From a virus, in UHGV virus genome UHGV-1374574: a DNA stretch of 45,677 nucleotides; one strand, written 5' to 3'. Under the pieces are notes generated by a model that was not told the DNA's origin, did not search any database, and saw only the letters and a list, made by a program, of their open reading frames with translations. Positions 1,667 to 33,596 of this stretch are shown piece after piece (the first letter of the stretch is position 1; every line of letters begins with the position of its first letter). The translations under genes and the position numbers were made by a program.

Positions 1667-1731
1667 GCTAACGTGGCATAACAGGTAAATGCACCGATAA
1701 GGTAGTGTAGGTTCGAGTCCTACCGTTAGCG
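1667..1731 (+). tRNA. tRNA-like element, non-canonical (65 nt; acceptor stem and T-arm intact, D/anticodon region too short)
   Basis: 7-8 bp acceptor helix GCTAACG/CGTTAGC and T-arm GTAGG-TTCGAGT-CCTAC, but only 33 nt between them. Confidence 0.35.
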
Positions 1732-2147: not shown

Positions 2148-2333
2148 ATGCCACTAACGAAAGGGCAGAAACTTACCGACAATCCAAAATGTGTTAAAAT
2201 CGGATTGAGATTAACGCATCAAGAAGCAGACGATTTACAGTATTGTGCTGAAAAATTGGGGATATGTCGAACCGAAGTGATAAATATGGGTGTTCAAATG
2301 GTAAGAAAAGAGATTGAAAAGCAAAAAGGATAA
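2148..2333 (+). CDS. ribbon-helix-helix (CopG/Arc-like) DNA-binding protein
   Basis: Beta-strand plus two-helix pattern VKIGLRLTHQEADDLQYCAEKLGICRTEVINMGVQMV; strong RBS GGAGG. Confidence 0.55.
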   Translation: MPLTKGQKLTDNPKCVKIGLRLTHQEADDLQYCAEKLGICRTEVINMGVQMVRKEIEKQKG

Positions 2334-3259: not shown

Positions 3260-3271
3260 AGCAAATCATAT

Positions 3272-3325
3272 TGACAAAATATCATTTTTCTTATAGAATG
3301 GTATTAGTCGGATAGTAATAAGGAG
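3272..3325 (+). promoter_or_regulatory. promoter (TTGACA-17-TATAGAAT) with downstream TATTAGTCGGATAGTAATA operator-like dyad
   Basis: Near-consensus -35 and -10; dyad shares TATTAGTCG with the two downstream promoters. Confidence 0.45.
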
Positions 3326-3332
3326 TGAGAAA

Positions 3333-3572
3333 ATGGCAAGTAGACCAGAATATACAACAGAATATATCCAAAAGAATCTCGAAAGACTGGAAATTCGATT
3401 CCAGGCAAAGGATGAAATGACAAAAAAGATAGACGAACATTGTATAAAGCATGGTTATGTTAATACAAACGGTCGCTATCCGGGCAAATCGAATAGAACA
3501 GAGTTTATCAAAAAGGCCATTGAAACACAAATTGCTATTGATAATGGTAAATTAAAGGTAATAAAAGAGTAG
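3333..3572 (+). CDS. ribbon-helix-helix family regulator (candidate regulator of downstream promoters)
   Basis: LERLEIRFQAKDEMTKKIDEHC ... RTEFIKKAIETQI RHH-like pattern; lies immediately upstream of operator-bearing promoters. Confidence 0.5.
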   Translation: MASRPEYTTEYIQKNLERLEIRFQAKDEMTKKIDEHCIKHGYVNTNGRYPGKSNRTEFIKKAIETQIAIDNGKLKVIKE

Positions 3573-3598
3573 GTGTAAAAAGCCTACTCTTATTTTTT
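3566..3598 (+). terminator. rho-independent terminator
   Basis: AGAGTAGG / CCTACTCT stem followed by TATTTTTT. Confidence 0.6.
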
Positions 3599-3620
3599 AA
3601 AAAAAGTTGAAAAAAAGGTA

Positions 3621-3649
3621 TTGACTTTATTAGTCGACTATGATAATAT
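3621..3649 (+). promoter_or_regulatory. promoter P1 (TTGACT-17-TGaTAATAT) with TAGTCGACTA palindrome in spacer
   Basis: A-tract UP region, -35 TTGACT, extended -10; perfect 10-bp palindrome 3631-3640. Confidence 0.6.
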
Positions 3650-3654
3650 GTAGA

Positions 3655-4248
3655 CAGTAACACAAAACCCTATATATTGAGGCCTACCAAAAAGCCGGAA
3701 ACGGTGGCGGGTAATAAGTGGATATACATATATAGGTAAAGTGTAGCGGATCGGCGAGAAGTAACGGCCACTCATTAAACGAACTGCACTATAAACACTA
3801 ATTGAGTTAAATAACATTCTGGTATGAAAGAACCGTGAGACTTTCCGGCAAGAGGTAATGCCGTTACTGATTACCCGTTGAGTGAATAGCCGATAAGCAC
3901 TCTTACAATGATTACGGCCTAGTGACTACTACTTATAGTAGGAATCGGTGTTTATGATAGTAACAGGACGATTTCAGCCGATTTAAAACCTGTCTGAAAT
4001 TAAAAAGTGTTCGTAAGGAAAGAACGTAAGACTTCCGTTGAAACTATTGATTATCTAAGGAAGATATAAAAGCCGCATATTTTATATTGGAATTACCGCC
4101 ACGGGTAAAGTGGGGCGCAAGGGGCAGCCAAAAAGTCCATCATAGAAAACTGATTGCAAGCGTGAACGGATGCGGACAAGTAGCGGTTGTAATGGGCGGA
4201 CTATGTAAATTTCCGGGTGGGAGCGTAAAAACTTCCACCCTTTTTTAT
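3655..4248 (+). ncRNA. candidate large structured ncRNA (~600 nt; possibly ROOL/GOLLD-like prophage RNA)
   Basis: ORF-free span between strong promoter and intrinsic terminator 4215-4248 (GGGTGGGAG/CTTCCACCC + TTTTTT); long-range complementarities such as CGGTGGCGGGTAAT(3708) / ATTACCGCCACGGG(4092) and CGGGTAAT(3716) / ATTACCCG(3873). Confidence 0.5.
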
Positions 4249-4253
4249 TTCCA

Positions 4254-4321
4254 GGCAAATCGTTTTAAGGCAAATCACTTTTTGAAAAGCAAATCACTTT
4301 TCAAGGCAAATCGTTTTTCTG
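4254..4321 (+). repeat. 4 tandem copies of GCAAATC(G/A)(T/C)TTTT (~16-bp period)
   Basis: GGCAAATCGTTTTAA / GGCAAATCACTTTTTGAAAA / GCAAATCACTTTTCAAG / GCAAATCGTTTTTCT. Confidence 0.5.
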
Positions 4322-4477
4322 CTACGGGCGTGTATATGGCAAACTGACGAACTGTACCAACGGGACCAAACGGGGCGGATCTATGAACCTTATACCAGTA
4401 CACGAACACAAAAACCAAACTATTTTTTGCATTATATAGGAAGAAACACGATTTTTTAAAAAAAATAAAAAAAACAC

Positions 4478-4506
4478 TTGATTTATTAGTCGACTAATGG
4501 TAAGAT
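4478..4506 (+). promoter_or_regulatory. promoter P2 (TTGATT-17-TAAGAT) with TTAGTCGACTAA palindrome in spacer
   Basis: Same architecture as P1; 12-bp perfect palindrome 4486-4497; long A-tract upstream. Confidence 0.6.
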
Positions 4507-4582
4507 AGACTTATAGGGAACACTTTAGTCTGCTAAAGCGGAATGAAACTACAAAACAATTATAAGAAAGGAAGTAAAAAAT

Positions 4583-4777
4583 ATGGATTATGATTTTAGT
4601 TTAAAAGCATGTATGGAAAGTGTAGAGTTTGAGATTGAAACATTAAAAGCAAATGTATTTGAAGAATTAGGGAAAGCAATTATAAGAGCAGAACAAGATC
4701 CGTTTTTTAATAAGACCATGATTGAAGCATACAAAACATACATCAAAGAACACGATTTAAAATGGAACGATAAATAA
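4583..4777 (+). CDS. hypothetical protein (cassette gene 1)
   Basis: ORF with RBS AAAGGAAG; no recognisable domain; AT-rich by eye. Confidence 0.5.
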   Translation: MDYDFSLKACMESVEFEIETLKANVFEELGKAIIRAEQDPFFNKTMIEAYKTYIKEHDLKWNDK

Positions 4778-6846: not shown

Positions 6847-6891
6847 GAGAGGATCTAAACGGATAAAAACCGGGTGGATCTTCTTTTTTTG
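6847..6891 (+). terminator. putative terminator of cassette operon
   Basis: Imperfect stem GAGAGGATC/GATCTTCTT with large loop, followed by TTTTTTT. Confidence 0.4.
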
Positions 6892-7604
6892 TTTGCGCTG
6901 CCGAAAAGCCGAACAAATAAAGAATAATAAAAGATAAAGCCGGGAACGGGGAAAGGAAGAAACGGTATAATAGCGTATAAAAGCGTATAAGGCCCATATA
7001 GCGACTTTTTGCGTTTAGTGTACTCTAATATACCTACGATAGAAACGGCTGCATATAGTCAAAATAGAACGTTCTGGCAAGGTGTCGAAAAGCCGATAAC
7101 ATAAGGGAAACAAAAGGAAATAGAGAAAGAAAGGATATAGAGATATACTACGGCTTGAAAGATAGGCTTTTTTGTTTGCTATGCTTTTGTACTATCGGCT
7201 TACAGTCTGTTTGGTGGGTGGTGGGTGTGGCATTTTCGGCTATGGGCATTCTAGCGCATGAATAGGGGAAATAGGGGCTATAACGATGGGCATATATACT
7301 ACTATACCTATATAATAATAACGCAAATACGGGCATTTTAGAGCGTTGTACTGTGTGAGAAAGCCTTGGAAAAGCCTTTATTTATACGGTTTTGTGCATT
7401 TTGTACAGTGCAAACAACGTGTACCCTATACATAAGGCACATATTGCACCCCAAAAAAGGGTAAAATTCCCAGTGAATATTTGGAAATGGGGAGGGGGGT
7501 GTCCCGATGCTGACCTGGATTTGAACTTATACCCATCCTTCCCTACAGAATAAAAAACCCACCATAGGGGGCCAAAATATACTTGTATGTCATTTATGAG
7601 GTTA

Positions 7605-7632
7605 TTGACATACATAATAAAAAGGGTATATA
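7605..7632 (+). promoter_or_regulatory. promoter TTGACA-16-TATATA
   Basis: Consensus -35 at 7605-7610; drives RHH gene 7666. Confidence 0.5.
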
Positions 7633-7665
7633 CTACAGGTGATTTTTTGAGAGGGAGGTATATCT

Positions 7666-8131: not shown

Positions 8132-8153
8132 AGGTTTGGAAGAAAGGGGCAAC

Positions 8154-8618
8154 ATGGCAACCAGAAGTAAGTTAAAGAATTATAACGGCCTTACAGATAC
8201 CGAGCAGAGGTTTTGTGATGCCTATATGAAAAATGGTGGTGACGGTGTTGCTGCTATGGAAGAAGCCGGATATTCGCATAAGTCGGCAAAGAGACTTTGG
8301 GCAGATATGTACAAGAAACCCGAAGTACAGAATTACTTGCAGACAGTCACAAAGACGATTGAACGAGAAACGATTGCGACTACGGCAGAGATCCGTGAAT
8401 TTTTGACATCTGTTATGAGAAACGAAGCAGAAATGACAGAATACATGAACCGTTTTATCGGTGGTGGCGAACAGGAAATCACACCAGTAGTCAGAAAGCC
8501 GAATAACCGGGAGAAGTTAGATGCTGCCGATAAACTTTTGAAGATTAGCGGTGCATACAACAAAGATGTTAATACGAATATTATTCCTATTGTCATTCAA
8601 AACGACTTAGGAAAATAG
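8154..8618 (+). CDS. terS: terminase small subunit
   Basis: LTDTEQRFCDAYMKNGG...AAMEEAGYSHKSAKRLWADMYKKPEVQNYL matches Firmicutes phage TerS HTH pattern; start moved to ATG 8154 (RBS GAAAGGGG) because track start 8121 lies in the terminator. Confidence 0.75.
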   Translation: MATRSKLKNYNGLTDTEQRFCDAYMKNGGDGVAAMEEAGYSHKSAKRLWADMYKKPEVQNYLQTVTKTIERETIATTAEIREFLTSVMRNEAEMTEYMNRFIGGGEQEITPVVRKPNNREKLDAADKLLKISGAYNKDVNTNIIPIVIQNDLGK

Positions 8619-8713
8619 AATATGTTGGTTGCGGTTTATCCAACACATAGAAAAAGCCAACAGGGAGATTATCCGTCAAAGGGTAGTCTCCTTTTTGATT
8701 TTTTGAGAAAGGA

Positions 8714-9973
8714 GTGGTTGTCATAGCACAAGAAGCAAAGCAAGTTTCGTTACGACAGGTTATCGGACAGGGATATGATGAATTTTTCAACTTCAAAGGC
8801 CGTTATCTTGTGTGCAAGGGGAGCAGAGCAAGTAAGAAGTCAAAGACAACCGCTTTACGTTGGATAGTTTTACTGATGCAATATCCAACGGCAAACTTGG
8901 TATGTGTTAGAAAGGTGTTTAGTACGTTACACGATAGTTGCTTTGCGGATCTGAAATGGGCAATCAATCAGTTAGGAGTTCAAGACTTCTGGCAATATAA
9001 AGAAAGTCCGTTAGAGATTACCTATAAACCAACCGGGCAGAAAATTCTGTTTCGTGGTATGGATGATGCTTTAAAGTTGGCATCTATTACAGTACCAACA
9101 GGTAGTTTGTGTTGGTGTTGGGGCGAGGAGTTCTATGAGGTAATGGACGAAGATAGTTTTAACCTTTTAGATGAATCTATCCGTGGTGAGATTGCAGAAG
9201 GACTTTTCAAGCAGATTGTTATTACATTTAACCCGTGGAATGAGAAACACTGGTTGAAGAAACGATTTTTCGACACTCCAAACGATGAAAACAAACTGGC
9301 ATTAACAACCAACTATATGTGTAACGAGTGGTTGGACGATAACGATAGAGCATTGTTCGAAAGAATGAAAGAACAGAATCCTAGACGTTACCGAACTGCC
9401 GGGTTAGGTGATTGGGGTATTTCCGAGGGTGTTATCTACGAAAATTGGGAAGAACAGAAATTTACCGTTGATGCAATCCGTAAGAGAGGACATATTAAAG
9501 CGGCATTCGGCATCGACTTTGGTTTTACCGATGAAACGGCATTTGTGGCTTGTTTGATTGATGATAACAACAAGGAAATCTTTGTTTTTGATGAATGGGT
9601 AAAGAACAACGTCACGAATGAGGACATTTACAATGCAGTTTGGAGTTTGGGTTATTCAGACCAGATTGTAGTTTGTGATAGTGCTGAACCAAAATCCATC
9701 CAGGAACTTAGAAACTTAGGACTGTATAAGGCTAGACCGGCACGAAAAGGCCGTGATAGTGTCTTGTATGGTATTCAGTTAATACAACAGTATAAAGTGA
9801 TTATTCATCCGAATTGCGCTCATACAATCACGGACATTAGTAATTACAGTTGGGAAAAAGATAAGCAAGGAAATTTGGTAAACAGACCGAACCATGATTT
9901 TTCACATACTATGGACGCTTTGAGATATGCGGTTATGGATAAAGTGAGAGGTTCGGCTTTTTCTTTTGATTAA
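8714..9973 (+). CDS. terL: terminase large subunit
   Basis: Walker A CKGSRASKKSKT; C-terminal nuclease-like acidic motifs; position after terS. Confidence 0.9.
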   Translation: MVVIAQEAKQVSLRQVIGQGYDEFFNFKGRYLVCKGSRASKKSKTTALRWIVLLMQYPTANLVCVRKVFSTLHDSCFADLKWAINQLGVQDFWQYKESPLEITYKPTGQKILFRGMDDALKLASITVPTGSLCWCWGEEFYEVMDEDSFNLLDESIRGEIAEGLFKQIVITFNPWNEKHWLKKRFFDTPNDENKLALTTNYMCNEWLDDNDRALFERMKEQNPRRYRTAGLGDWGISEGVIYENWEEQKFTVDAIRKRGHIKAAFGIDFGFTDETAFVACLIDDNNKEIFVFDEWVKNNVTNEDIYNAVWSLGYSDQIVVCDSAEPKSIQELRNLGLYKARPARKGRDSVLYGIQLIQQYKVIIHPNCAHTITDISNYSWEKDKQGNLVNRPNHDFSHTMDALRYAVMDKVRGSAFSFD

Positions 9974-9982
9974 GGAGGCAAC

Positions 9983-11476
9983 ATGAACGGATTCTTACCG
10001 TATGGTGCAATGACAAACATTGCAAACAACATTGTGAATGAAGGCGCACAGTCGGTAATGTCCGATAAGCGTTTTCTTGAAAAAGAGATTAAAGAATGGA
10101 AAGATTCTGCGAAACGGCAAGAAATGATTGTAGCAGACCAGTATTACAATGGGGACCACCCTATTAAATTCTCCAAAAGAGAAGTAATTGGTGAGGGCGG
10201 TAACAAAGTTGAGGTTGACAATCTGCCGAACAATCGTATTATCGACAACCAGTACCAGAAAGCGGTAGACGAAAAGAAAAACTACATCATGGCAAAACCA
10301 CTTACCATTACCGCAAAAGATTCTAAGTATGGTGAAACCGTAAAGAAATACTACAATGCAAAGATGCACCGCACATTAAACAGAGTTTGTCGAGAAAGTA
10401 TCGACAAGGGCGTTGCTTTTTTATATCCGTATTATGACAGTAACAGTGTGTTACGGTGGAAACACTTCCGTTCATGGGACATTATACCTTTCTTTGAAGA
10501 TGAAGAAAGAACGATTTTAGAAGCGTTTGGCCGTTTATATACCATTGAGGGTTACGAAGGTGAAGAACGTAAGGTATTTGAGTTTTTCGATTACTACACC
10601 GCAGACGGTATCAAGCATTACCGATTAGAGGGTGGCCGACTTTTTGAGAACGAACTAGAAGAAGATGAACCGTATGCTTCTATCAATGTTCCGGCAGAAG
10701 GTGGTTACGAAAAGAAGTATTTCAACTGGCAGAGAATACCACTTATCGTTTTCAAGAGAAACGAAAAGGAAATCCCGCTGATCCGTAACACAAAGAGTAT
10801 TCAAGATGCAATCAACCGTATAGTTTCTAATTTCGTAAACAACATGGAAGAAGATGTGAGAAACACAATTATGGTTCTTATCAATTATGACGGTGAGAAT
10901 TTGGGTGATTTCCGACAGAAACTTTCTACATACGGTGCAGTAAAGGTAACAACGATTGACGGACAGGCCGGGGACGTAAAAACCTTACAGGTACAGGTTA
11001 ATGCCGAGAACTACAAAGCAATCTTAGGTATTTTAAAAGAAGCATTGGTTGAAAATGCACGTTCTTTTAATGTAAAGGACAACCGATTGACTTCCGATGC
11101 TAACCAGATGCACATTCAGACGGCTTATCACGATATGGACCTTGATGCTGACGATATGGAAGTTGAGTGGCAAGCAGCATTCGAAGAAATGATGTTCTTT
11201 ATCAATGCAGACATTAAGAATAAAGGCGGTAACGTGCCGGAGGATGCAACGGTAACATTTACATTCAATAGAAATATGATGATTGATGAAAATGCAATCA
11301 TTCAGAATTGTGTTGTATCTAAGGATATTATCAGTGATGAAACAATCCGTGCAAAGCATCCGTGGTGTGTAGATCCAGAAAAAGAGAAACAGTTGCTTTC
11401 CACACAGATGAAAGAAGAAGTAGCATATAACCCTACAGGAAAGACACCGACCTACAAGGATGGTGAGGATGAATGA
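9983..11476 (+). CDS. portal protein (SPP1 gp6-like)
   Basis: Size, position and similarity pattern to SPP1-type portals. Confidence 0.85.
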   Translation: MNGFLPYGAMTNIANNIVNEGAQSVMSDKRFLEKEIKEWKDSAKRQEMIVADQYYNGDHPIKFSKREVIGEGGNKVEVDNLPNNRIIDNQYQKAVDEKKNYIMAKPLTITAKDSKYGETVKKYYNAKMHRTLNRVCRESIDKGVAFLYPYYDSNSVLRWKHFRSWDIIPFFEDEERTILEAFGRLYTIEGYEGEERKVFEFFDYYTADGIKHYRLEGGRLFENELEEDEPYASINVPAEGGYEKKYFNWQRIPLIVFKRNEKEIPLIRNTKSIQDAINRIVSNFVNNMEEDVRNTIMVLINYDGENLGDFRQKLSTYGAVKVTTIDGQAGDVKTLQVQVNAENYKAILGILKEALVENARSFNVKDNRLTSDANQMHIQTAYHDMDLDADDMEVEWQAAFEEMMFFINADIKNKGGNVPEDATVTFTFNRNMMIDENAIIQNCVVSKDIISDETIRAKHPWCVDPEKEKQLLSTQMKEEVAYNPTGKTPTYKDGEDE

Positions 11477-12642
11477 CTTTAGAGGAATATATGTTTCAGA
11501 TAGGGGAGAACGAATATTCAGAAGATGTTCGTTTCCTCTTATCTGTCATAGAAACAGAAGATAGCCTAAAAGAAGATATTGAACGGTTACTATTCCTATT
11601 TTCTAAGGGTAAGATAACAAAGCGTAAACTAAAAGCAGAAATCAATAGCCTTATAAATTCGTTTTTTGATTATTTCAGCCATGATTTTGAGGAAGTTTTG
11701 CAAAAAAGTTTCTTGGATAACCTTTTAGAGACTGCTTTTGTTATTCAACTTATTAAAAATAGATTTAACAAAGTAACTCTGGGCAAACTTAACCCAAATT
11801 GGCACATCAACAAGGAATCTTATATTGATGATATGTTGTTTTACAAAGGACGGTTGCAACAAGATATTCTCAAAGAGATAAACCGAGGCATTATATACGA
11901 CCAGGATATTTCGGTAGAAAAGGCTTTTAAAACGCTCGAAAACAGTATGAAAGCAATGATAGATACCGAATGTTCGTATGCGGAAAGACAAGGCACAAAA
12001 ACGGCTTTTGATAATGAGAGTATCAAGAAATACAGATACTTAGCGACACTTGATACCAAGACTTGCGAAGATTGTGCAGAGTTGGACGGAAAAGTGTTCC
12101 TTGTCAAAGATGCAGAAGTCGGTGTTAATTACAGTCCGATGCACCCACATTGTAGATGTGTAATACTTCCATACTTTGAAGATTTCGAAACAGGTACAAG
12201 GGCGGCAAGGGATAAAGATGGCAACACAATTCAAGTGCCAAACACAATGACCTTTGCTGAATGGAATAAAAAGTACGGCAAAACCGTAGTAAATAACAGT
12301 AAAGCACTTGAAAAATCCGGGAAAAGTGGTAAAATAATATCAGAGTTTACAATCCATGATGACAAAATCAATAAATTCTGTTTGAAACAAGGTTCAAAAC
12401 ACGCAGAAGAATTTTTTAATGTAGGATATGAACCTTCGGACGGGGAATTGTTAAAGCACGATATACTGACACAGACTACGAATGAAAGAGTAGACATTAA
12501 AATTGAGGACACGGGAGCAGAGAAGTTCAGTATATTCATGGAATTGGGCAAAACAAAGAAAAAACGGTTCAGAACTGTATGGCAGAAAAATACGCCAAGT
12601 AGTAAACCAAGATTGATTACGGCACATAGAGAGGACGAGTGA
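11473..12642 (+). CDS. head morphogenesis protein (SPP1 gp7 family)
   Basis: Signature TKTCEDCAELDGKVF...PMHPHCRCV motif. Confidence 0.85.
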   Translation: MTLEEYMFQIGENEYSEDVRFLLSVIETEDSLKEDIERLLFLFSKGKITKRKLKAEINSLINSFFDYFSHDFEEVLQKSFLDNLLETAFVIQLIKNRFNKVTLGKLNPNWHINKESYIDDMLFYKGRLQQDILKEINRGIIYDQDISVEKAFKTLENSMKAMIDTECSYAERQGTKTAFDNESIKKYRYLATLDTKTCEDCAELDGKVFLVKDAEVGVNYSPMHPHCRCVILPYFEDFETGTRAARDKDGNTIQVPNTMTFAEWNKKYGKTVVNNSKALEKSGKSGKIISEFTIHDDKINKFCLKQGSKHAEEFFNVGYEPSDGELLKHDILTQTTNERVDIKIEDTGAEKFSIFMELGKTKKKRFRTVWQKNTPSSKPRLITAHREDE

Positions 12643-13056: not shown

Positions 13057-13128
13057 GGCGGGATAGAGCAGTGGTAACTCGCTAGGCTCATAACCTAGAA
13101 ATCGTTGGTTCAAATCCAACTCCCGCAA
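13057..13128 (+). tRNA. tRNA-Met (anticodon CAT; could be Ile2/lysidine type)
   Basis: Cloverleaf: acceptor GGCGGGA/TCCCGCA, anticodon stem CTAGG/CCTAG with loop CTCATAA, T-arm GTTGG-TTCAAAT-CCAAC; G1.A72 mismatch noted. Confidence 0.7.
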
Positions 13129-32063: not shown

Positions 32064-33596
32064 TTATTTTCTCGGCATTTTTGGATAGATTTTAATTGTG
32101 AAATTGTGCATACCATCTTCACTTTTCCAAAACTCCACTTTTTCGAGGACTTCTTTAAATAACAGATTGCGTCCGACAGTGTCTATATCATCGTACATAT
32201 CGAAAAGCCGTTCAACTTTTGGTGCGAATGATTCATTGTCGGTTGCAAATGTTTTTTCGTTCTCTATTAGTTCTTTCGTGCTGACAATATCAGCGTCAAT
32301 CTTCTTTTTTCGAGCGAAAAGCGTTTCCGACCTCTTATTGTACATATCAAGTGAATAAACACCTTTTTCGAGTAAATCACAAAGAGAATCAATCTGGCCG
32401 TCCACGGTAGTTAATTCATCTTTGAGAGCAGCGAGAGTAGATTCGTACAACGGTAATTGTGATTCTCTAACAAGCGGAACACTTTCTACAGTGTAATCTG
32501 CGTACCATTCTTTTAGAGCATCAAGTACACGTTCTACAACTAAGTGGTGTCTGGCCTGTTTATTACCACAGTTATAACGGCACTTTAAATAACCCGGATA
32601 TTTCTTGTCACGGGATGTATATATCATGGCTTTTCCACAACAACCACATTTCATAATTCCGGCAAGTTCATTTTTTAAATCTTTATTATCGTTGCAACCT
32701 GTTTTTGTGTTCGAAAGTCTGATAGATTGCACTTTATAATATTGTTCTTCTGTAATAAGCGGTTCGTGAATACCGTCTACAATTTCTATTTTCGATTTTT
32801 CGTTACGTTTTACTTTCTTAGTTTCCACACCATCTGTTAATATTCTTTGTGTCGATTTGATACCACGCACAACTTTACCAATATAGTGAGGATTCTGTAA
32901 TGCACGTTTGATAACTGAACCAGTCCACAAGGAACCGTGTCGAGTTGGAACACCGAGTTTGTTTAACTTATCGGCAATAGTATTTACTCCAATACCTTGT
33001 TCTGCCATATCGTACATCATGCGTAAATACGGTGCTTCTTGTTCGTTTGGTGTCAGTGTATATCCTTTGCCTTTTTGAACTTTCATTCTGTTATATCCAT
33101 ACGGAGCAACGGAAGGTATATACAATCCCTGGTTGAAAGATTTCACTCTGCCATCAATAAGACGTTTCTTAATACTGTTATACTCTATGCGAGCAAAGAA
33201 AAGTTTCATTTCAAAGAATTGTGAATCAGACGGATCGCAAGGGTTGTAAATCTTATCTGGTGTAACAATGTTTACTTTCATGTAGAAAACCGTACTGAAA
33301 ATTCTACCCTGGTCCGACATATTACCACGACTCAAACGGTCAACATCATATACAAGTAAATTATCTACTTCCCCCTGTTCCATCAATCTAAGGACTTTTT
33401 GTATTTCTGGTCGTGCAACGATGGTGTCACCAGAAACGATTTCACGATAGATGTGGTCCTCTGTTACTGGCATATTCAATCGCTTAGACAATTCCATTAA
33501 AGCATTGTAATGTCTAGTGAGTGTTTCGCCTTGCCCACTTTGTTCCGCTTCTATATCTTCACGGCTTTTTCTTAGATACATCACATTGATTCCCAT
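32064..33596 (-). CDS. large serine recombinase (integrase)
   Basis: N-terminal resolvase motifs YLRKSRED, VYDVDRLSR; recombinase domain; zinc ribbon CGCCGKAMIY...CRYNCGNK; coiled coil. Confidence 0.85.
   Translation of the reverse strand: MGINVMYLRKSREDIEAEQSGQGETLTRHYNALMELSKRLNMPVTEDHIYREIVSGDTIVARPEIQKVLRLMEQGEVDNLLVYDVDRLSRGNMSDQGRIFSTVFYMKVNIVTPDKIYNPCDPSDSQFFEMKLFFARIEYNSIKKRLIDGRVKSFNQGLYIPSVAPYGYNRMKVQKGKGYTLTPNEQEAPYLRMMYDMAEQGIGVNTIADKLNKLGVPTRHGSLWTGSVIKRALQNPHYIGKVVRGIKSTQRILTDGVETKKVKRNEKSKIEIVDGIHEPLITEEQYYKVQSIRLSNTKTGCNDNKDLKNELAGIMKCGCCGKAMIYTSRDKKYPGYLKCRYNCGNKQARHHLVVERVLDALKEWYADYTVESVPLVRESQLPLYESTLAALKDELTTVDGQIDSLCDLLEKGVYSLDMYNKRSETLFARKKKIDADIVSTKELIENEKTFATDNESFAPKVERLFDMYDDIDTVGRNLLFKEVLEKVEFWKSEDGMHNFTIKIYPKMPRK

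Follow-up and report, generated by a model that had tools for sequence, protein, structure and literature searches.

The viral genome UHGV-1374574, a stretch of 45,677 nt which we call the window and to which all coordinates without a contig name refer, carries at 3656-4250 a segment that is predicted to encode a large structured RNA. From its sequence alone this segment had been proposed (the original prediction) to be a large, structured non-coding RNA (ncRNA) in a prophage, reaching from promoter to terminator and lacking an open reading frame (ORF), a proposal that homologues and covariation now support. Comparative sequence analysis indicates that it is a conserved, plus-strand, non-coding unit which runs from promoter to terminator, has a conserved fold and lies outside any described family.

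The window is a temperate phage genome. It contains a dUTPase gene (1240-1659), genes for the small (8121) and large (8714) terminase subunits, tail and lysis genes, and a serine integrase gene on the minus strand (32064-33596), as well as genes for a CI-like repressor, RecT/exonuclease, a DnaD-like loader and a single-stranded DNA-binding protein. The integrase, repressor, RecT/exonuclease and terminase genes make the prophage assignment of the original prediction roughly right. The Clostridia host that it also suggested is not confirmed by matches to the large terminase subunit (TerL), the nearest of which comes from a human faecal phage (55% identity) and the next from phages of Bacillota. 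On one side of the RNA gene lie the early (replication/dUTPase) genes and on the other the late (terminase) genes.

The RNA gene and its borders

The features of the RNA gene are as follows.

3621-3649, plus strand: promoter of the RNA gene, TTGACT-17-TGnTAATAT
3630-3641: palindrome TTAGTCGACTA in the spacer of the RNA promoter, a presumed operator
3656-4250, plus strand: the RNA, about 595 nt, its 5' end inferred from the -10 box and its 3' end set at the T-run of the terminator
3663-3737, plus strand: 5' domain, with helix P2 (3669-3677 paired with 3728-3736)
3677-3684, 3685-3688, 3710-3713 and 3714-3720, plus strand: UUGAGGCC, UACC, GGUA and AUAAGUG respectively, inside P2
3694-3705, plus strand: hairpin P3, GCCG and CGGU around the loop GAAA, inside the UACC/GGUA clamp
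3740-3790, plus strand: helix P4, AGUGUAG paired with CUGCACU
3819-3836, plus strand: hairpin P5
3880-3913, plus strand: hairpin P7, GAGUG and CACUC around a 13-nt loop, then the conserved block CAAUGAUU (3906-3913)
3944-4038, plus strand: variable peripheral insert
4063-4088, plus strand: hairpin P9, GAUAUAAAA and UAUUUUAUAUU around the loop GCCGCA
4141-4205, plus strand: long 3' hairpin P11
ending at 4212, plus strand: near-invariant 3' tail, UGGGYGGAsUAUGUAAAUUU
4215-4250, plus strand: intrinsic terminator, a 9-bp stem (4215-4240) followed by TTTTTTATTT

Relatives were reached by way of the 79-aa protein encoded directly upstream, whose homologues led to their encoding contigs, in which the RNA was sought with nhmmer. 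Through the protein's close relatives we arrived at contigs L001/L002, L003, L004 and the partial L005-L007, and a pattern scan for the 3' tail added only L104 and L112. The window, L001, L003, L004, L104 and further close contigs form lineage A (or group A), in which the RNA region is about 95% identical to that of the window. Distant homologues detected by nhmmer lie at 11570-12113 of L009 (lineage B; L010 is identical to L009), 8185-8795 of L093 (lineage C) and 2783-3345 of L155 (lineage E), each inside an ORF-free gap of 0.9-1.1 kb. The layout of promoter, RNA of about 500-650 nt (503-650 nt in the relatives) and intrinsic terminator is found in all four lineages of these metagenomic phage contigs.

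The near-consensus promoter and the clean intrinsic terminator were both found where the original prediction had placed them. Across the lineages the promoter has the form TTGAC(T/A)-17-TA(T/C)AAT with an inverted repeat in its spacer (TTAGTCGACTA in A, ATGGTCGACCAT in B, ACAGCCGACTGT in C and TACTGACGTCAGTA in E). Within group A the stem of the terminator has undergone compensatory changes, from G-C to A-U (outermost pair) and from G-U to A-U, and terminators of unrelated sequence occupy the matching position in lineages B, C and E. In this AT-rich region 7.1 promoter-like and 1.2 terminator-like sites are expected, and a scan returned 8 and 2 respectively; the two borders are taken as real because their form and position are conserved in four lineages, not because such sites are rare.

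These borders indicate an autonomous, moron-like transcription unit with its own predicted sigma-70-type promoter and intrinsic terminator. Phage morons are autonomous promoter-gene-terminator units inserted between phage operons, and the RNA unit resembles them in having its own promoter and terminator and in lying between unrelated neighbours that vary from phage to phage. It differs in its cargo, a 0.5-kb structured RNA rather than a protein gene, and in sharing an operator-like palindrome with the next operon.

Non-coding status

TAA, TAG and TGA all interrupt every plus-strand frame of the RNA span, so that no frame is open and a reassigned stop codon rescues no ORF; stop-codon reassignment was rejected on this ground. 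No ORF is common to lineages A, B and C on either strand of the span, and the claim that it holds no credible ORF stands. An 86-aa ORF with a TTG start (4087-4347) runs through the terminator and has no GGAGG-like ribosome-binding site upstream, as had been pointed out, and it is also missing in the 95%-identical L001. On the minus strand, an ORF of 59 aa (3638-3817) is retained in L001. A tRNA or transfer-messenger RNA (tmRNA) was considered and rejected, as neither ARAGORN nor the Rfam tRNA and tmRNA models made a call inside the span.

Conserved fold

In the 5' domain, the strands of P2 differ between lineages (CCUAUAUAU/AUAUAUAGG in A, CCUAUAUU/AAUAUAGG in B, AGAUAU/AUAUCU in C and CCAUAUAU/AUAUAUGG in E). 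The helix closes a near-invariant asymmetric internal loop, with UUGAGGNC on the 5' side and AUAAGUGNAUAUA on the 3' side, which is clamped by the 4-bp UACC/GGUA helix, and the conserved 5' module reads UUGAGGNC-UACC...GGUA-AUAAGUG. On inspection by eye the internal loop did not fit a K-turn. Beyond the clamp there is a GNRA-capped hairpin in A and a 5-nt loop in E; in B and C there is a helix P3 and, after it, the entire module once more as a nested second copy.

A covariance model (R1) was built from lineages B and C together with the group D RNAs, a different RNA type described below, with group A left out. R1 recovers both the window at 3663-3737 (32.2 bits, E=1e-4; the model is home-made and its E-values are rough) and the 5' domain of L155. 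On the R1 alignment, which is fitted to the model and leans towards structure, 84% of cells in the 5' domain are paired, against 19-43% when the pairing is slid. The covariation score is 0.207 (at most 0.056 in controls), and nine pairs have changed on both sides.

Helices further along the molecule also carry paired changes. Pair 3742-3788 of P4 goes from U-A to C-G within group A, and P5 has a G-C to A-U double change in L001, with hairpins of 7-8 bp standing at the corresponding position in B, C and E. P7 is present in four lineages as a stem of 5-6 bp, differing in sequence, with a loop of 12-13 nt, always directly 5' of the invariant CAAUGAUU. P2, P5 and P7 are confirmed in four lineages. 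The peripheral insert measures 95 nt in the window, about 150 nt (partly different) in L001, L104 and L006, and 3-4 nt in L003 and L004; being replaced or nearly lost in relatives, it is regarded as a dispensable, variable element.

The 3' domain was aligned with MAFFT across all four lineages, with no structure fitting. In this alignment 82% of cells are paired (24-40% in slid controls), 12 pairs have changed on both sides (0-3 in slid controls) and the covariation score is 0.318 (at most 0.086 in slid controls); none of 500 shuffles matched these three observed values. P9 is paired in 100% of cells, with five of its eight pairs changed on both sides across lineages and an A-U to G-C change within group A, and P11 is 87-100% paired, again with changes on both sides. 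Two further hairpins in this test, one with a CCC/GGG stem (37.5% paired) and one with an AAGGGC loop (50% paired), hold in B, C and E and mostly fail in group A. Group A alone provides three clean compensatory pairs, namely 3742-3788, one in P9 and the outermost terminator pair; several of its further changes are G-U compatible. The original prediction had proposed that homologues be aligned and checked for covariation, and the pairs do covary above slid and shuffled controls, so that a conserved secondary structure, as predicted by comparison, is backed by compensatory changes.

The 3' tail is conserved in A, B, C and E. It includes, at 4201-4212, a minimal start-stop ORF, AUGUAA, which follows GGNGGA, is invariant in four lineages and lies about 10 nt before the terminator. 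Both AUGUAA and GGNGGA are paired within P11.

P9 and P11 pair in 92% of cells on the plus strand (39 of them G-U cells) and in 79% on the minus strand. As the plus strand pairs better and G-U pairs are tolerated, the selected molecule is taken to be the plus-strand transcript.

Several candidate pairings were rejected. The original prediction had pointed to long-range complementarities seen by eye, and these exist, with coordinates 3-8 nt away from those given: CGGTGGCGGGTAAT from 3702 (3702-3715 with 4092-4105), CGGGTAATAAGT at 3708-3719 with ACTGATTACCCG at 3866-3877, and GGTAAT at 3854-3859 with ATTACC at 3870-3875. They are not conserved pairings. All three helices meet uncompensated substitutions in group A (among the pair-breaking changes, L104 has A for C3708, L004 has A for the partner G, L001/L006 have A for G3706 and L006 has C for a U), and their segments lack a counterpart in B, C and E. 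A better explanation for the GGUAAU at 3710 is that it supplies the 3' strand of the UACC/GGUA clamp, which is conserved in every lineage. The view that such complementarities are unusually numerous is not supported either, since the span folds no better than shuffled sequences. Long-range pairings suggested by RNAalifold (the 5' leader with 4100-4110; AGGCC with GGCCU) were dropped too, having no counterpart in B, C and E.

Distribution

The RNA family is rare. The full RNA was found on one IMG/VR contig and on two contigs in the JGI/other metagenome set, and an exact 23-mer of it occurs only in L002 within IMG/VR and in none of 185,579 GTDB species genomes. No match was obtained by blastn ('distant') when GenBank phages were searched with the RNAs of lineages A, C and E and of group D, or PLSDB plasmids with that of lineage A. 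A pattern scan with AATAAGTGGATATACA returned 76 matches, all due to chance. With the profile of the 79-aa protein, IMG/VR gave only the contig already known, and JGI metagenomes and GTDB genomes gave nothing; the flanking 231-aa protein has no relatives in IMG/VR. In the first 200 of 408 files of a published catalogue of candidate structured RNAs, neither motif string occurs (PMC8040213).

Neighbouring genes and DNA elements

The surroundings of the RNA gene in the window comprise the following features.

3333-3572, plus strand: gene for a small protein of 79 aa, directly upstream of the RNA gene, with its own promoter (3271-3299) and its own terminator (3565-3591)
4252-4320, plus strand: four direct iterons, GCAAATC(G/A)(T/C)TTT, after the terminator; DNA-level context, outside the RNA
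4426-4452: conserved box TTTTTTGCATTATATAGGAAGAAACAC, lying after the iterons and before the second promoter, also present in L009 (about 12296-12320) and L093 (8993-9020)
4479-4507, plus strand: second promoter, TTGATT-17-TGGTAAGAT, with the same palindrome as the RNA promoter, driving the next operon (64-aa ORF at 4583)

The neighbouring genes vary by lineage. Upstream there is the 79-aa gene, pRha/ANT, a 194-aa ORF or a 50-aa ORF, and downstream there are ORFs of 64 and 231 aa in the window, a different ORF in L001, ArdA in L009 and others in L093 and L155. They differ even inside group A, where the downstream ORF of L001 is unlike that of the window despite 95% identity of the RNA. Since the flanking genes differ between lineages, we read the RNA unit as a self-contained cassette which would be trans-acting rather than specific to one gene.

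Exact copies of the palindrome TTAGTCGACTA occur in the window at 3630 and 4486 only, both in promoter spacers. The second promoter of L093 likewise carries a palindrome related to that of its own RNA promoter. Read on the minus strand, the box TTTTTTGCATTATATAGGAAGAAACAC resembles a -10 element (TATAAT) with a -35-like TTTAAA, and RNA made from such a promoter would be antisense to both the iterons and the 3' end of the structured RNA.

The 79-aa protein belongs to a family with the motif AIETQMAIDxGE, comprising about 30 protein clusters in a profile search; several paralogs per phage are common. In L009, five tandem paralogs (8851-10258) are followed by the pRha/ANT anti-repressor gene, the RNA gene and ardA. 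The Pfam family RHH_1 matches the protein faintly (E ~0.03), and its AlphaFold2 model has a predicted local distance difference test (pLDDT) score of 87; no PDB match was found by sequence or by structure. The faint Pfam match hints at a possible ribbon-helix-helix (RHH) fold.

Iterons are more frequent in the window than expected (8 matches against 2.2); those behind the terminator fall at 4255-4317, and degenerate copies lie at 2625 and 3261. In lineages B, C and E they border the RNA gene on both sides (L009, 11338-11420 and 12130-12175; L093, 8046-8085 and 8805-8868; L155, 2587-2655 and 3322-3415), and in L155 and L093 an intrinsic terminator takes its loop and stem from an iteron. They always lie on the coding strand, and every locus that has a gene of this protein family has them too, whether the RNA is there or not. 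Contigs L011, L091, L095 and L154 have iterons and the 79-aa family and no RNA; the iterons are therefore part of the regulatory make-up of these phages, not of the RNA. The 79-aa protein is a plausible candidate for the iteron binder.

Three other parts of the window are worth recording. Directly after the dUTPase gene, a tRNA-like element (1667-1731, plus strand) scores 49.6 bits on the Rfam tRNA model, and ARAGORN makes no call there. Its acceptor, D and T arms are good, and a 9-nt mini-hairpin (CCGAUAAGG) stands in place of the anticodon arm; truncation of a tRNA, or mimicry of one, could account for the element. In the ORF-poor stretch that follows (1730-2150), which has a terminator-like hairpin at about 1896-1930, sits a 61-aa ORF (2148-2333, plus strand) that is absent from the list of 90-aa ORFs and matches phrog_876 ('transcriptional repressor'). 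Thirdly, an ORF-poor gap of about 0.8 kb (approximately 6890-7660) precedes a 93-aa ORF and the gene for the small terminase subunit (TerS). This gap has G-runs (GGTGGGTGGTGGGTGTGG and GGGGAGGGGGG) and short blocks (7360-7404 and 7539-7572) that are conserved in the equivalent place in L009, L093 and L091. Rfam gave no match within it; a packaging site or late regulatory region is a possible reading.

Relation to known RNA families

The original prediction had likened the RNA to the ROOL and GOLLD classes. ROOL (RF03087; Weinberg et al. 2017) averages 581 nt and often occurs in prophages and near tRNA genes (PMC5737381); it has six multistem junctions along with three pseudoknots and forms a homo-oligomeric cage (PMC12286853). 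GOLLD (RF01998) is often found next to tRNAs (PMC5737381).

A search of the whole window with Rfam 15 at gathering score gave no match to ROOL, GOLLD or any other family in the RNA span. With lax filters and E<=10 there was likewise none in the window at 3500-4600, in L093 at 8150-8820 or in L009 at 11530-12130. Within 3656-4250 the best Rfam matches, terminator-like fragments, reached no more than 23 bits, where the thresholds are at least 50. No tRNA gene is adjacent either, the nearest candidates by Rfam and ARAGORN being the tRNA-like element at 1667-1731 and a tRNA-Met gene at 13057. As lineages A, B and C are all without a match, the RNA is neither ROOL nor GOLLD.

It does resemble ROOL in its size, its stand-alone, ORF-free gene, its occurrence in phages and prophages of Bacillota, its complex predicted fold and its variable periphery. 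The differences are the lack of a covariance-model match or a tRNA neighbourhood, the other conserved motifs, and a very narrow distribution, whereas ROOL occurs in three phyla. The junctions, pseudoknots and cage of ROOL also contrast with the partial, sequence-derived fold by which the present RNA is known. GOLLD is larger, at about 800 nt. The likeness to GOLLD is that of one large phage-associated structured RNA to another, and here too the present RNA has no model match and is not tRNA-adjacent.

A closer likeness, confined to the 5' module, was found in the group D RNAs. They came from a pattern scan of IMG/VR and occur on about 20 contigs of 45-196 kb, from IMG sample 3300045988 (L125-L149) and a few others (L118, L146 and L148). 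They share with the present RNA a P2 helix enclosing nested copies of UUGAGGNC-UACC...GGUA-AUAAGUG, followed by (A/C)AAYGAUUG. They differ in having two copies of the module, nothing similar beyond about 110 nt, and a tRNA-like element at the end. In L126 (4415-4790), for example, the two copies are followed by about 200 nt and a tRNA-like 3' end, the latter with the T-arm GUGGGUUCAAUUCCCAC and, by eye, a 7-bp acceptor-like stem. In L148, ARAGORN calls a tRNA-Lys(ttt) of 87 nt. The group D RNAs have no relevant match in Rfam, and the group D fragments that were fetched contain no gene of the 79-aa family. Group D is a second undescribed RNA type.

Interpretation

Taken together, the comparisons indicate a new family of large (about 0.5-0.65 kb), putatively structured RNAs in temperate phages of gut Bacillota. 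The evidence favours the undescribed RNA that the original prediction had offered as its fallback.

The RNA probably acts in trans as a folded molecule. Its invariant internal loop (duplicated in B and C), its hairpin loops and its 3' tail would be contact surfaces, through which the RNA would bind a protein partner or assemble with other RNA. The palindrome, shared by both promoters in the window and related in L093, would serve as an operator coupling synthesis of the RNA to that of the neighbouring accessory/late operon.

Several points weigh against this reading. The trans-acting mode, the role of the palindrome as an operator and the transcript ends are all inferred from sequence, and the covariation statistics rest on four lineages only. 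Taken as a single sequence, the RNA is not unusually stable: its minimum free energy has a z of -0.22, and equal or greater stability is reached by 33 of 100 shuffles. Competing helices occur in the central third of the RNA, whose length varies between lineages. In L009 the palindrome of the second promoter differs from that of the RNA promoter, and the 79-aa family accompanies the RNA yet is also present in loci without it.

A more ambitious proposal, which we regard as tentative, is that the RNA represents a new class of large phage RNAs built on a reusable UUGAGGNC/AUAAGUGNAUAUA loop module. This module, present in one or two nested copies and common to the tRNA-linked RNAs of large phages, might be where a host or phage factor, or else another RNA, docks specifically, and the whole molecule might be an RNA machine or decoy in lytic development. 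If so, it could be, for example, a counter-defence or RNA-processing device, its neighbours including anti-restriction (ArdA) and anti-repressor genes.

The main rival to a trans-acting RNA is a cis-acting leader or attenuator, in which the folded RNA would control read-through of its own terminator into the downstream operon, for instance by hiding or exposing GGNGGA-N2-AUGUAA (a Shine-Dalgarno (SD)-like sequence with a start-stop) about 10 nt before the terminator. The RNA gene does lie immediately upstream of that operon in the same orientation, and its most conserved segment adjoins the terminator, with AUGUAA kept in four lineages and the AUG and G-run paired in P11. We nevertheless consider a leader unlikely. 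In A, B and C the terminator is followed by a separate consensus promoter, and unrelated genes are found downstream from lineage to lineage and even inside group A. The terminators are wholly different in sequence, and no alternative antiterminator pairing with the conserved part was seen. In addition, 500-650 nt is well above the size of known leaders, and an SD-AUG spacing of 2-3 nt is poor.

It is much less probable that the conserved entity is a DNA-level element, such as a regulatory spacer, a replication origin or a packaging region, in which RNA structure is incidental. The flanking iteron arrays and palindromes, the presence of iterons without the RNA in related phages and the second ORF-poor gap with conserved blocks ahead of the TerS gene would fit such an element. 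Against it, the conserved part is bounded exactly by promoter and terminator in four lineages, and the helices covary and tolerate G-U, with pairing dropping from 92% to 79% on the other strand. Stem sequences change and loops stay fixed. This pattern of covarying stems, G-U tolerance and fixed loops argues that selection acts on a single-stranded transcript.

Divergent membership of ROOL or GOLLD would agree with the size (close to that of ROOL) and with the phage context, and is made highly improbable by the negative Rfam 15 search (to E<=10 in A, B and C) and the lack of an adjacent tRNA gene. A protein-coding gene or pseudogene, perhaps in an alternative code or on the minus strand, is equally hard to credit: no single reassignment opens a plus-strand frame, no ORF is shared by A, B and C, and in the 59-aa minus-strand ORF kept in L001 the approximately 5 nucleotide differences from the window lead to five amino-acid changes.

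Very few phage or bacterial RNAs are known to us that exceed about 500 nt and have conserved complex folds, essentially rRNA, group II introns, GOLLD, ROOL and OLE. Each of these large RNAs does something unusual, such as catalysis or the formation of RNA-only cages (PMC5737381; PMC12286853). A further, unrelated family would be a compact test case, with clear gene borders and a short conserved module shared with other phage RNAs, and its dispensable insert would mark a site tolerant of tags. The finding also suggests that rare RNA classes missing from Rfam are still present in gut phage metagenomes, and that such RNAs may be reached through a neighbouring small-protein family rather than through DNA similarity.

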